IMG/VR virus record: IMGVR_UViG_2541047750_000003
Location: 1 to 52,473 of that record
DNA from: a virus
Lineage: Duplodnaviria > Heunggongvirae > Uroviricota > Caudoviricetes
Strand: one strand, 5' to 3'
DNA: 52,473 nucleotides
Shown here one piece after another: positions 25,574-27,274 of the stretch. The position numbers were made by a program, and so were the translations under genes. Position 1 is the stretch's first letter. Each line of letters begins with the position of its first letter. The notes under the pieces are model-generated. The model was not told where the DNA came from. It was given only the letters and a program-made list of their open reading frames with translations, and did not search any database.

Positions 25574-26158
25574 ATGGCTAAGGGTAAAGGCATTAAGTTG
25601 CCTCAATTCAAAGTCCCGCTCTTCGAGCATACAACAGTTTTCTTCTGCCCGACTCGTGACATGTTCTATGAATTTTGCGAAAAGGCAGGGATCCCAATCG
25701 AACCTGATTTTGAACTGGCAGGAGGTTTAACACTTACTTGCACTGGCGAGAAAGGCGGTAACTTCTACGTGATCGCAGTATTCGATAATGAGCTTGGTAC
25801 GCTGGTACATGAAGCGGCTCACACTACATTCCACGTTTTAAGTGATGTCGGTGTCGTAGCGACTACAGAACCAAGCCATCCGGCAAACGAGACATATGCT
25901 TACATGGTGGGCCGCATCTTTGATGCATTCTTCCCGATCCTGGCTGAATCTAACGAAGCACAGTTGGCAGCTATGCAGGCCGCTGAAGTCGTTGAGCAGG
26001 CATTGGAGCAGGCGGAAAAGGCGACTGATGCAGCAGAACAGGCAGTAGAGCAGGCAGAGGAGCCGAAAGAAGAGAAAAAACCAGCCAAGAAAGGCAAACG
26101 TAAGCCTAAAGCAAAAGAGGCGCTTGTACCGCGTGTAATGAGCTTTAAACGAGGCTGA
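25574..26158 (+). CDS. hypothetical protein with HExxH motif (194 aa)
   Basis: LVHEAAHTTFHV (possible zinc-binding HExxH); low-complexity acidic-then-basic C-terminus. Confidence 0.45.
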   Translation: MAKGKGIKLPQFKVPLFEHTTVFFCPTRDMFYEFCEKAGIPIEPDFELAGGLTLTCTGEKGGNFYVIAVFDNELGTLVHEAAHTTFHVLSDVGVVATTEPSHPANETYAYMVGRIFDAFFPILAESNEAQLAAMQAAEVVEQALEQAEKATDAAEQAVEQAEEPKEEKKPAKKGKRKPKAKEALVPRVMSFKRG

Positions 26159-26160
26159 TT

Positions 26161-26223
26161 ATGGACGCTTATTTATTTATCGGAATGGCGGCGGCTGTAA
26201 TATTGTTTTTGTTGTGGAAGTAA
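26161..26223 (+). CDS. micro-ORF 1 of array, single-TM peptide (20 aa)
   Basis: MDAYLFIGMAAAVILFLLWK; GAGG SD 10 nt upstream; stop overlaps next start (TAATG). Confidence 0.45.
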   Translation: MDAYLFIGMAAAVILFLLWK

Positions 26224-26333
26224 TGATTATGGCCGCTTACATCATTGCCGTATTAATCGGCGTTTCTGTGTTTCTTGCTGGTTCTATTATAGTTGCGCTG
26301 ATAAACGTATATATCAAGTATTTGGTGGGGTGA
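26223..26333 (+). CDS. micro-ORF 2, hydrophobic peptide (36 aa)
   Basis: MIMAAYIIAVLIGVSVFLAGSIIVALINVYIKYLVG. Confidence 0.45.
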   Translation: MIMAAYIIAVLIGVSVFLAGSIIVALINVYIKYLVG

Positions 26334-26337
26334 AAAT

Positions 26338-26412
26338 ATGATTGACCCGCTAATCATCCTTTCCTTATGCGTCGCCGTATGGCTGGCGATCATGATATTC
26401 ATTGAAAGCTGA
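26338..26412 (+). CDS. micro-ORF 3, single-TM peptide (24 aa)
   Basis: MIDPLIILSLCVAVWLAIMIFIES; GGGGTGA SD. Confidence 0.45.
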   Translation: MIDPLIILSLCVAVWLAIMIFIES

Positions 26413-26415
26413 AGC

Positions 26416-26514
26416 ATGGATATATTCGAACTGATGGCGATTATGTTCGGAATGATGTTAGGCATTGTCGCCATAATTATTATCATCGGCCTTGTTATGG
26501 GTAGCATCAAATGA
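26416..26514 (+). CDS. micro-ORF 4, single-TM peptide (32 aa)
   Basis: MDIFELMAIMFGMMLGIVAIIIIIGLVMGSIK; ATGA overlap with next ORF. Confidence 0.45.
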   Translation: MDIFELMAIMFGMMLGIVAIIIIIGLVMGSIK

Positions 26515-26591
26515 ACGCATACGAAATGCTATTGCTGGTGGCTGTAGTTGTAGTCATTGCTGTTGATTTTTATCGAGGGCTAAAAAGATGA
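26511..26591 (+). CDS. micro-ORF 5, single-TM peptide (26 aa)
   Basis: MNAYEMLLLVAVVVVIAVDFYRGLKR; ATGA overlap with next ORF. Confidence 0.45.
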   Translation: MNAYEMLLLVAVVVVIAVDFYRGLKR

Positions 26592-26659
26592 GAGAAGCAG
26601 ACTTCTTTTGCATGATTATAGTGATTGTCATCGTTGCGGTGCTTTTAAGTGTTAACTGA
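26588..26659 (+). CDS. micro-ORF 6, single-TM peptide (23 aa)
   Basis: MREADFFCMIIVIVIVAVLLSVN; GAGGG SD. Confidence 0.45.
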   Translation: MREADFFCMIIVIVIVAVLLSVN

Positions 26660-26674
26660 ATCTCAGGAGTTAAA

Positions 26675-26743
26675 ATGAAATGGCTTGATTTCTTTTTCCT
26701 GATTGTCGCGATTGTTCTTACCATGACAGCACTGACTCAGTAG
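26675..26743 (+). CDS. micro-ORF 7, single-TM peptide (22 aa)
   Basis: MKWLDFFFLIVAIVLTMTALTQ; AGGAG SD at ideal spacing. Confidence 0.5.
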   Translation: MKWLDFFFLIVAIVLTMTALTQ

Positions 26744-26751
26744 GTGAGCGA

Positions 26752-26826
26752 ATGAACGCTATTGATATTATGTTGATCGTGTGTACAGTTGCGTTATTTA
26801 TTATCTTGGTAATTATCAATGTCTGA
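26752..26826 (+). CDS. micro-ORF 8, single-TM peptide (24 aa)
   Basis: MNAIDIMLIVCTVALFIILVIINV; GGTGAG SD. Confidence 0.45.
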   Translation: MNAIDIMLIVCTVALFIILVIINV

Positions 26827-26887
26827 TAGTGATTTCTTAATTATAGCTATAAGCGCACTGTTGGTTGTTATTGTTTTCTCCTGGTGA
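26819..26887 (+). CDS. micro-ORF 9, single-TM peptide (22 aa)
   Basis: MSDSDFLIIAISALLVVIVFSW; overlaps micro-ORF 8 by 8 nt; weak SD. Confidence 0.35.
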   Translation: MSDSDFLIIAISALLVVIVFSW

Positions 26888-26895
26888 GAAATATT

Positions 26896-27039
26896 ATGTT
26901 TGAATTTATCGATCTACTGATGTTTTTGCTTTGTTCTGGCGTGCTTATCGTCGCGTTAATGTTATGCGTATACGCGATTGTAATGACTGGTGCGCTAATT
27001 TACAGAGAAGCGAAGCATATATTCAAGGGGCAACAATGA
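26896..27039 (+). CDS. micro-ORF 10, two-helix hydrophobic peptide (47 aa)
   Basis: MFEFIDLLMFLLCSGVLIVALMLCVYAIVMTGALIYREAKHIFKGQQ; GGTGAG SD; ATGA overlap with next ORF. Confidence 0.45.
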   Translation: MFEFIDLLMFLLCSGVLIVALMLCVYAIVMTGALIYREAKHIFKGQQ

Positions 27040-27119
27040 AAGAGCTATTCGACTGGTTGGAAGTATTAACATATTGCGCAAGTTTTGTGGCTTGCGTATA
27101 TATCATCAACAAATATTAA
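27036..27119 (+). CDS. micro-ORF 11, single-TM peptide (27 aa)
   Basis: MKELFDWLEVLTYCASFVACVYIINKY; AAGGGG SD (track ORF 26931..27119 is the same frame extended upstream). Confidence 0.45.
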   Translation: MKELFDWLEVLTYCASFVACVYIINKY

Positions 27120-27130
27120 GAGGTGACGAT

Positions 27131-27274
27131 ATGAACGATGAAGAACTAAAAATAGCAGATGAAATAAGAAAGACACTTGATTCAGCAGAAAATAATGAAA
27201 CCATCTATCTTTCCGAACAGGAAGTAGAAAAGATGATGAATGAATTTAAATTAAGATTTGGTAAAGATGATTAA
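27131..27274 (+). CDS. small acidic soluble protein (47 aa)
   Basis: MNDEELKIADEIRKTLDSAENNETIYLSEQEVEKMMNEFKLRFGKDD; strong AAGAGGTG SD (internal start of track ORF 27074..27274). Confidence 0.45.
   Translation: MNDEELKIADEIRKTLDSAENNETIYLSEQEVEKMMNEFKLRFGKDD

Follow-up and report, generated by a model that had tools for sequence, protein, structure and literature searches.

Do an HExxH-motif gene, an array of very short open reading frames (ORFs) and a small acidic ORF, standing together between the lysis and packaging genes of a coliphage, form one functional unit, or were they brought together separately? The question arises from a 52,473-nucleotide (nt) stretch called the window (IMG/VR record IMGVR_UViG_2541047750_000003; Caudoviricetes). 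It belongs to the mEp021 (mEpimmI) group and represents a temperate coliphage or prophage, in which the following elements succeed one another:

25574 to 26158, + strand: ORF of 194 amino acids (aa), the HExxH gene
26161 to 27119, + strand: eleven hydrophobic micro-ORFs of 20 to 47 aa
27131 to 27274, + strand: 47-aa acidic ORF
27285 to 27800, + strand: terS of the Sf6 type, the conserved anchor downstream (PF20901, E = 1.5e-37; PHROG 1482, E = 4.9e-51)

A first-pass annotation of this DNA had placed a 194-aa protein with LVHEAAHTTFHV and a charged tail ahead of the array, which our coordinates bear out; it took the compact arrangement for one insertion unit and entertained a peptidase-plus-peptides relationship. 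We find instead that the lysis/terminase junction holds three layers, each acquired separately: the HExxH gene, the array and the acidic ORF. We consider it moderately probable that the 194-aa protein is a cytoplasmic mini-gluzincin, likely a metallopeptidase, which serves an accessory role independent of the array, and that the acidic ORF is a third, younger cassette. Seen this way the finding is fairly ordinary, an accessory zincin-like gene at a module boundary joined by two unrelated accessory insertions; the array is the more unusual object but a separate finding.

The part of the protein on which the enzymatic reading depends is encoded as follows:

25574 to 25969, + strand: catalytic-type domain, residues 1 to 132, defined by the PHROG 1365 match, the AlphaFold2 (AF2) model and invariant residues
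25808 to 25822, + strand: HEAAH codons (H79, E80, H83)
25889 to 25891, + strand: codon of E106, the putative third zinc ligand

The sequence LVHEAAHTTFHV covers residues 77 to 88, with HEAAH at residues 79 to 83. Residues 3 to 130 matched positions 5 to 123 of the 127-position profile of PHROG 1365 (E = 1.6e-29), a family of unknown function. A word-indexed search returned only close Escherichia coli relatives of 172 to 211 aa; an exhaustive search with residues 1 to 132 returned ∼148 clusters, nearly all of them stand-alone proteins of 110 to 140 aa. One match that looked like a polyvalent protein (P0174; 6,837 aa) aligned to residues 4 to 48 only and was rejected as a low-complexity artifact. 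Conservation was scored in two sets, one of 50 sequences (25 to 64% identity) and one of 132 family representatives (22 to 64% identity; stand-alone, median 124 aa, maximum 189 aa). In the smaller set, the only invariant columns were G51, H79, E80, H83 and E106. In the larger set, H79, H83 and E106 were the sole invariant columns (132/132), E80 and G51 were each kept in 131 of the 132 and Y110 in 127. Given this degree of constraint on H79, E80, H83 and E106, the HExxH motif is not a chance occurrence. E106 lies 23 residues past H83, in a conserved NE(T/A)(F/Y)xY motif at the start of a helix (residues 103 to 131), and an HExxH followed by a glutamate ∼20 to 25 residues downstream is, at the level of sequence, the signature of gluzincins. 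The family is a compact phage group with a clean gluzincin signature, widespread, uncharacterized and outside Pfam and NCBIfam. In it phages may encode a protease directed at a host or phage protein, and as a candidate of this kind it is tractable.

The predicted fold is consistent with this signature. The AF2 model of the domain (predicted local distance difference test score of 93.2; predicted template modeling score of 0.87) runs through strands 11 to 13 and 21 to 25, helices 28 to 38 and 44 to 48, strands 51 to 57 and 63 to 69, helix 74 to 91 with the HExxH motif and helix 103 to 131 with E106 at its start. On comparison of topology, this order agrees with the zincin core described in PMC5512222, a backing helix and a β-sheet ahead of the active-site helix. 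A non-enzymatic fold, named in the first-pass annotation as one half of the outcome that would speak against its proposal, is not what the model and the invariant signature indicate. Among profile hits to Protein Data Bank (PDB) sequences that fell below threshold, 9 of 11 were zinc metallopeptidases, including myroilysin, BMP1/tolloid and peptidyl-Lys metalloendopeptidase, aligned over a strand and the HExxH helix. In Pfam, a single weak match recurred, to SprT-like (PF10263); it was found in 5 of 50 members and confined to the HExxH helix (E = 0.009 or worse; ∼15 bits versus a gathering cutoff of 25.6); the 194-aa protein itself did not match PF10263. Two source records label homologues "PolyVal Metallopeptidase superfamily domain" and "SprT-like family protein." A zinc-peptidase-like character is supported by predicted topology and signature, not by fold matching. 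We infer from these that H79, H83 and E106 would hold a zinc ion, with E80 as the general base, and that the gene product would be a minimal zinc hydrolase of the gluzincin type, soluble in the cytoplasm and in all likelihood a metallopeptidase, whose substrate would be a host or phage protein rather than the neighboring micro-peptides.

The same residues bear on whether the domain is a peptidase at all. It might be a zincin-fold hydrolase of a non-peptide substrate (e.g., nucleotides) or a zinc-stabilized, non-catalytic binding module: HExxH motifs do occur in non-peptidase enzymes, 3 of 50 members gave weak matches to the TIGR04267 HExxH-hydroxylase model, and no peptidase family or structure was matched significantly. 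However, retention of the catalytic-base glutamate E80 alongside the three ligands disfavors a purely structural zinc site, and the subthreshold PDB hits are almost all peptidases, which leaves either version of this alternative very improbable.

Several known zincin groups resemble the family in part. Zincin-like metallopeptidase (MPTase) domains, including the C-terminal domain of ArdC, have been described in polyvalent proteins of phages and plasmids (Iyer et al. 2017, PMC5512222). Both kinds occur in mobile elements, and some homologues carry the polyvalent label in database records; however, the MPTase is one domain of a giant multidomain protein delivered with DNA, whereas members of the present family stand alone at 120 to 194 aa, and the 194-aa protein has no significant match to the Pfam model and is not annotated as a virion protein in mEp021. 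With the SprT-like/Spartan/Wss1 group (PF10263) it shares a small HExxH domain and, in its long forms, a basic region that is possibly nucleic acid binding, but the family lacks a zinc ribbon or any other SprT accessory element. The minigluzincins proabylysin and projannalysin, which are archaeal or bacterial cellular proteins rather than phage accessory genes, have a similarly reduced catalytic domain of ∼100 to 110 aa made of a sheet, a backing helix, an HExxH helix and a glutamate helix. PDB searches with the 194-aa domain gave no sequence or structural match to them.

The closest counterparts by genome position are found in P22-like phages. Orf129 of phages L and ST64T (ST64Tp49), ST104 ORF47, epsilon34 gp70, HK620 HkcC and a P22 ORF are homologous over the whole domain (37 to 45% identity) and share the HExxH...NE(T)(F/Y)CY signature of the 194-aa protein. 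In L, ST64T, ST104 and epsilon34, the gene occupies the same slot, between Rz and a Dec-like gene plus terS. The homologues differ in being 121 to 129 aa long, without a coiled coil or basic tail, and in having no micro-ORFs alongside. HkcC and the P22 copy, unlike the 194-aa gene at its packaging junction, lie in the immI/sieA region beside sieA and mnt. The P22 homologue (NC_002371, ∼13849 to 14226; positions 2465 to 2842 of locus L009) is intact at 121 to 125 aa, reads HECAH...NETYCY and sits between sieA and orf59a/mnt; it is not annotated as a coding sequence (CDS) in the reference record, although its HK620 orthologue is annotated as hkcC. A literature search for hkcC returned only unrelated acronyms.

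If gene and array were one unit, they should travel together; the first-pass annotation had proposed their co-occurrence in other genomes as a check. We counted transmembrane (TM)-like micro-ORFs (15 to 50 aa, ATG start) within 1.5 kb downstream of the HExxH gene. Each of 15 mEp021-type loci had 4 to 10, whereas each of 52 other loci, mostly in P22-like phages and prophages, had 0 or 1, so that the gene occurs in other phages without adjacent micro-ORFs. The HExxH gene was present in every mEp021-type locus examined. Among 5,426 complete E. coli genomes, the HExxH gene was found in 31, part of the array in 35 and the acidic ORF in 4. A more distant phage carries a long-form relative (P0121; 56% identical) just 3 nt from terS, without any micro-ORF, in the order holin, lysozyme, Rz, ASCH gene, HExxH gene, Sf6-type terS, terL and portal; no micro-ORFs followed the HExxH gene at loci L074 to L076. 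In Cronobacter prophages and metagenomic P22-like contigs, the gene follows the lysis genes on the way to terS or stands immediately ahead of terS, and more distant family members occur in a T7-like DNA-metabolism region or beside an SU10-type portal gene. Since P0121 abuts terS, we take the ancestral order to be HExxH gene and then terS, with the array inserted later in the E. coli lineage. Direct ancestral coupling to terS is also indicated by the last codons of the HExxH gene, which supply the Shine-Dalgarno sequence of the next gene. Together, the 52 loci and P0121 argue that the array is a lineage-specific, variable insertion. On these distributions neither the single insertion unit nor the peptidase-plus-peptides relationship is supported.

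The array would then be a separate, hypervariable set of single-TM peptide genes, expanded between the HExxH gene and terS in the E. coli lineage. In the window its eleven ORFs are tightly packed, with stop and start codons mostly overlapping or abutting, and all are hydrophobic (mean Kyte-Doolittle score 0.8 to 2.6). Each begins with a short acidic N terminus followed directly by one hydrophobic span, such that only 2 to 10 residues per micro-peptide are exposed and nearly all of the rest is TM segment. We compared the window with loci L001 to L007, L011 and L017 to L022. Across the 15 loci, ∼14 micro-ORF families with orthologues occur in combinations of 4 to 12 per locus and vary by presence and absence. 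Pooled orthologues gave a ratio of nonsynonymous to synonymous polymorphism (pN/pS) of 0.23 in frame versus 1.01 and 1.13 in the other two frames, indicating that the micro-ORFs are real genes under purifying selection. None matched PHROG, Pfam, NCBIfam or PADLOC, the array stretch is left unannotated in prophages processed by RefSeq and the Prokaryotic Genome Annotation Pipeline (PGAP), and a literature search for small membrane proteins encoded in tandem beside lysis cassettes gave no relevant result. Genome pipelines thus leave 0.5 to 1 kb of genuine micro-genes unannotated in mEp021-type prophages. Several of the families share an M-x-x-x-D-F-hydrophobic start, a resemblance in their sequences that suggests paralogy.

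These properties also bear on a functional cassette, in which the HExxH protein would process, degrade or control the adjacent micro-peptides (or the arrangement would serve toxin control), with the acidic protein as third partner. Strict gene order with tight or overlapping junctions in 15/15 mEp021-type loci and further prophages, together with translational coupling of the first micro-ORF to the HExxH-gene stop codon, would fit such a cassette. Yet the HExxH family is widespread without micro-ORFs, its closest long-form relative outside E. coli has none, and the acidic ORF is missing from most loci. The HExxH domain remains 89 to 99% identical across arrays that differ in size from 4 to 12 ORFs. 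The micro-peptides are almost all TM, and no shared leader, leader/core organization or double-Gly-type motif was visible in these 20- to 47-aa ORFs; a soluble peptidase that itself lacks a TM segment would find almost nothing to cleave on membrane-inserted peptides of this kind. By the standards of cassettes for ribosomally synthesized and posttranslationally modified peptides or bacteriocins, peptidase and peptides do not co-occur across lineages (arrays are found only in the mEp021-type E. coli lineage), and the micro-ORFs have no leader/core or conserved cleavage motif. We therefore judge the cassette very unlikely. Nor do we give much weight to two bolder alternatives, which we consider improbable: that the HExxH protein, array and acidic protein are a co-evolving conflict module or, separately, that such proteins are new packaging-coupled, nucleic acid-tethered phage proteases. 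In the former case, a coiled-coil, basic-tailed mini-gluzincin would be co-expressed with rapidly diversifying single-TM peptides, controlling or joining them, and the targets would be host membrane-associated functions such as defense effectors, receptors or lysis timing.

Several observations weigh against an accessory metallopeptidase that is independent of the array. The 194-aa protein belongs to no Pfam, NCBIfam or PADLOC family. PDB sequences, searched with the single sequence and with a profile, yielded no significant match, and no solved zincin in the PDB was a significant structural neighbor of the domain model. The peptidase reading carried over from the first-pass annotation is supported by the invariant HExxH and downstream glutamate, on consecutive helices after a β-sheet. 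Every E. coli locus of the mEp021 type that was seen has both the HExxH gene and the array, and a functional link restricted to this lineage may exist; co-occurrence nevertheless carries little weight for such a link, because the whole region is syntenic in these phages. Finally, the HExxH gene is preceded by two terminator-like hairpins, described below, and for this reason may not simply be transcribed along with the lysis genes.

The 47-aa ORF, which the first-pass annotation had described as an acidic protein with a strong Shine-Dalgarno sequence after the array, is present as described, with AAGAGGTGA 4 nt ahead of its ATG. It encodes 14 Asp/Glu versus 7 Lys/Arg residues (net charge ∼−7). 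Its boundaries are marked by two copies of a direct repeat:

27115 to 27126, + strand: left 12-nt repeat ATTAAGAGGTGA, containing the stop codon of the last micro-ORF and a Shine-Dalgarno sequence
27270 to 27281, + strand: right 12-nt repeat ATTAAGAGGTGA, containing the acidic-ORF stop codon and the terS Shine-Dalgarno sequence

The copies (repeat D7) are 100% identical at a spacing of 155 and bracket the acidic ORF alone, and the genes on either side of the array are not its symmetrical partners. Phages without the ORF have one copy of the junction. The repeat and the single copy elsewhere together indicate that recombination at a ribosome-binding junction adds or removes a 155-bp cassette, and the acidic ORF would be the third and younger of the cassettes, moving at this stop-codon/Shine-Dalgarno repeat. 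Homologues form only 12 protein clusters (89 to 100% identity), all from E. coli; in mEp021-type prophages, the ORF is always directly upstream of terS and is annotated in RefSeq as a hypothetical protein. It had no match in 50,697 phage records and no family in Pfam, NCBIfam or PADLOC. Phage proteins that are small, acidic and helical often act as inhibitors or mimics. The lysis/terS junction of this prevalent gut coliphage group can be regarded as a hotspot where very small genes come and go through microhomologies at ribosome-binding sites.

Could the acidic ORF be a non-functional by-product, created when the terS ribosome-binding junction was duplicated? Its perfect flanking repeat and its restriction to one phage group are compatible with that origin, and the sequences diverge so little (6 variable sites in 5 alleles) that selection cannot be measured well. 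However, the frame is intact in 12/12 protein variants over hundreds of contigs and is kept through an ATG-to-GTG start change. The ORF also has a strong Shine-Dalgarno sequence of its own, and the 143 bp between the repeats are no copy of neighboring sequence; only short partial repeats (D3, D4, D9 and D11) touch the ORF. We consider a non-functional ORF unlikely.

What distinguishes the 194-aa protein from most of its family is its C terminus:

25949 to 26158, + strand: C-terminal extension, an acidic helix followed by a Lys/Arg-rich tail

Residues ∼126 to 165 form an acidic, Ala/Glu/Gln-rich helical stretch, and residues 166 to 194 form the Lys/Arg-rich tail; in the full-length model, the glutamate helix continues unbroken from 103 to 162, beyond which the tail is disordered. 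A 30-nt triple repeat (D1) lies at 25991 to 26074, and the 194-aa and 180-aa forms differ by expansion of an internal EQAxEQAE repeat. The basic tail KKPAKKGKRKPKAKEALVPRVMSFKRG is conserved after the acidic helix, with high conservation of KKGKRKPKAKEALVPRVMSFKRG in close relatives, where K175, R176, K177, K179, K181, E182, P186 and V188 are invariant. A similar tail is recognizable in P0121 (...KPKAKPIKEEYVPRIARYKRG), and basic tails also occur in unrelated long family members (P0163, P0169, P0191, P0225 and P0249). Part of this conservation is explained at the nucleotide level, because the last codons (AAACGAGGC or AAACGGGGG, then TGA) double as the Shine-Dalgarno sequence of the next ORF. 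Phages of the mEp013 type have a gene for a homing-type HNH endonuclease that overlaps the HExxH gene at its 3′ end and replaces the tail with a different one. In the mEp021 lineage, the domain carries an additional acidic, coiled-coil-like helix and a conserved Lys/Arg-rich tail.

Such a tail raises the possibility of a protease tethered to nucleic acid at packaging, in the manner of SprT/Spartan/Wss1: the tail would bind DNA, and the enzyme would strip phage DNA of its bound proteins or target the terminase or some other component of packaging. Conservation of the tail, its recurrence in the five independent long members, a gene abutting terS in L074 and L012-type loci and the weak SprT-like matches are in line with this idea. 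So is a KKPA(A)KK motif common to the basic tail (26069 to 26110) and the TerS N terminus (27312 to 27335). We nonetheless regard it as quite unlikely, given that the tail is absent from most family members (median 124 aa), that members also lie far from packaging genes (the P22 immI region and the T7-like DNA-metabolism region), that the SprT-like similarity is limited to the HExxH helix and that the Shine-Dalgarno role accounts for part of the tail conservation. The shared KKPA(A)KK may be a coincidence of Lys-rich segments or a trace of ancestral adjacency between the HExxH gene and terS.

Expression of the HExxH gene was considered from its leader:

25440 to 25574, + strand: structured non-coding leader of the HExxH gene, from its RNA fold

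The leader folds at −41.1 kcal/mol (z = −3.8 versus 200 shuffles) and comprises a long A-tract/U-tract hairpin (∼25440 to 25512), a GC-rich hairpin (25517 to 25543) followed by UUAUAUUUUU, and a third hairpin that covers the ribosome-binding site of the HExxH gene. Its core, TTTATAAAATTC...GTTTT(C/T)AG..TTTTATA, is conserved as far as L074 (a 56%-identity relative), and the hairpin is apparently maintained through changes on both arms. A terminator is annotated at this position in mEp021 and mEp013, and the A-tract/U-tract layout suggests a bidirectional terminator. Rfam gave no match in window positions 23000 to 28500. On the + strand from 23800 to 27900, neither the interval from the lysis genes to the HExxH gene nor the sequence just ahead of terS has a sigma-70-like promoter; two consensus matches alone were found (26459 to 26486 and 26762 to 26789), both inside the array, and matches are fewer than in shuffled sequence. 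The HExxH gene is therefore probably expressed late, by read-through, as part of a late transcript that would span the lysis/packaging junction. As to the virion, the proteins annotated as virion structural in the GenBank record of mEp021 do not include gp49. The mEpimmI paper, in which 16 virion proteins were identified by mass spectrometry, does not discuss this region.

The surrounding genes place the locus at the boundary between lysis and packaging modules:

24051 to 24284: holin
24205 to 24777: lysozyme
24747 to 25235: Rz
24955 to 25167: Rz1-like ORF embedded in Rz
25236 to 25573: non-coding gap of 338 bp
27775 to 29289: terL
From 29417: portal

Compared with phage records, the 2-kb region gave 7 matches at 85 to 91% identity, and identical proteins are on record for E. 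coli HVH 107. In the window (27285 to 29289), the E. coli M15 prophage, L007 and L020, the terS and terL genes overlap each other and encode a 171-aa TerS and a 504-aa TerL; most mEp phages have a TerS of 161 aa and a TerL of 492 aa, so that two terminase variants exist in one phage group. A mosaic breakpoint between the window and M15 (L011) falls inside the HExxH gene at ∼25800 to 25870. On its 3′ side the two share ∼100% identity across the array and the terminase genes and into the first part of the portal gene (as far as ∼29.6 kb, close to where the comparison stops), versus only ∼88 to 95% on its 5′ side. We rejected this breakpoint as evidence of separate inheritance, since it lies within the HExxH gene and the identical block continues well into the structural genes. 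Related phages have genes for HNH_3-type (homing) endonucleases inserted at differing points of the lysis/terS region, namely mEp013 (L006, 2192 to 2677), L007 (2752 to 3273) and L012 (749 to 1261).

The portal gene (29417 to 30808; PF06381, Phage_portal_3/DUF1073) carries the PGAP label "anti-CBASS protein Acb1 family protein" in two RefSeq prophage genomes (L011, 6339 to 7201; L082, 5214 to 5671) and "DUF1073 domain-containing protein" in a third; the Acb1 label is probably a naming artifact. Within the gap upstream of the HExxH gene, positions 25236 to 25470 contain short, interrupted minus-strand frames (e.g., ...LNISDKQIRALVLRVAGE*) that look, from their sequence, like a decayed leftward gene. 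The same interval has a 59-nt indel by which the MagusPhagus, L007 and L020 types differ from the window and mEp021, and mEp013 has an annotated minus-strand CDS at the equivalent place.

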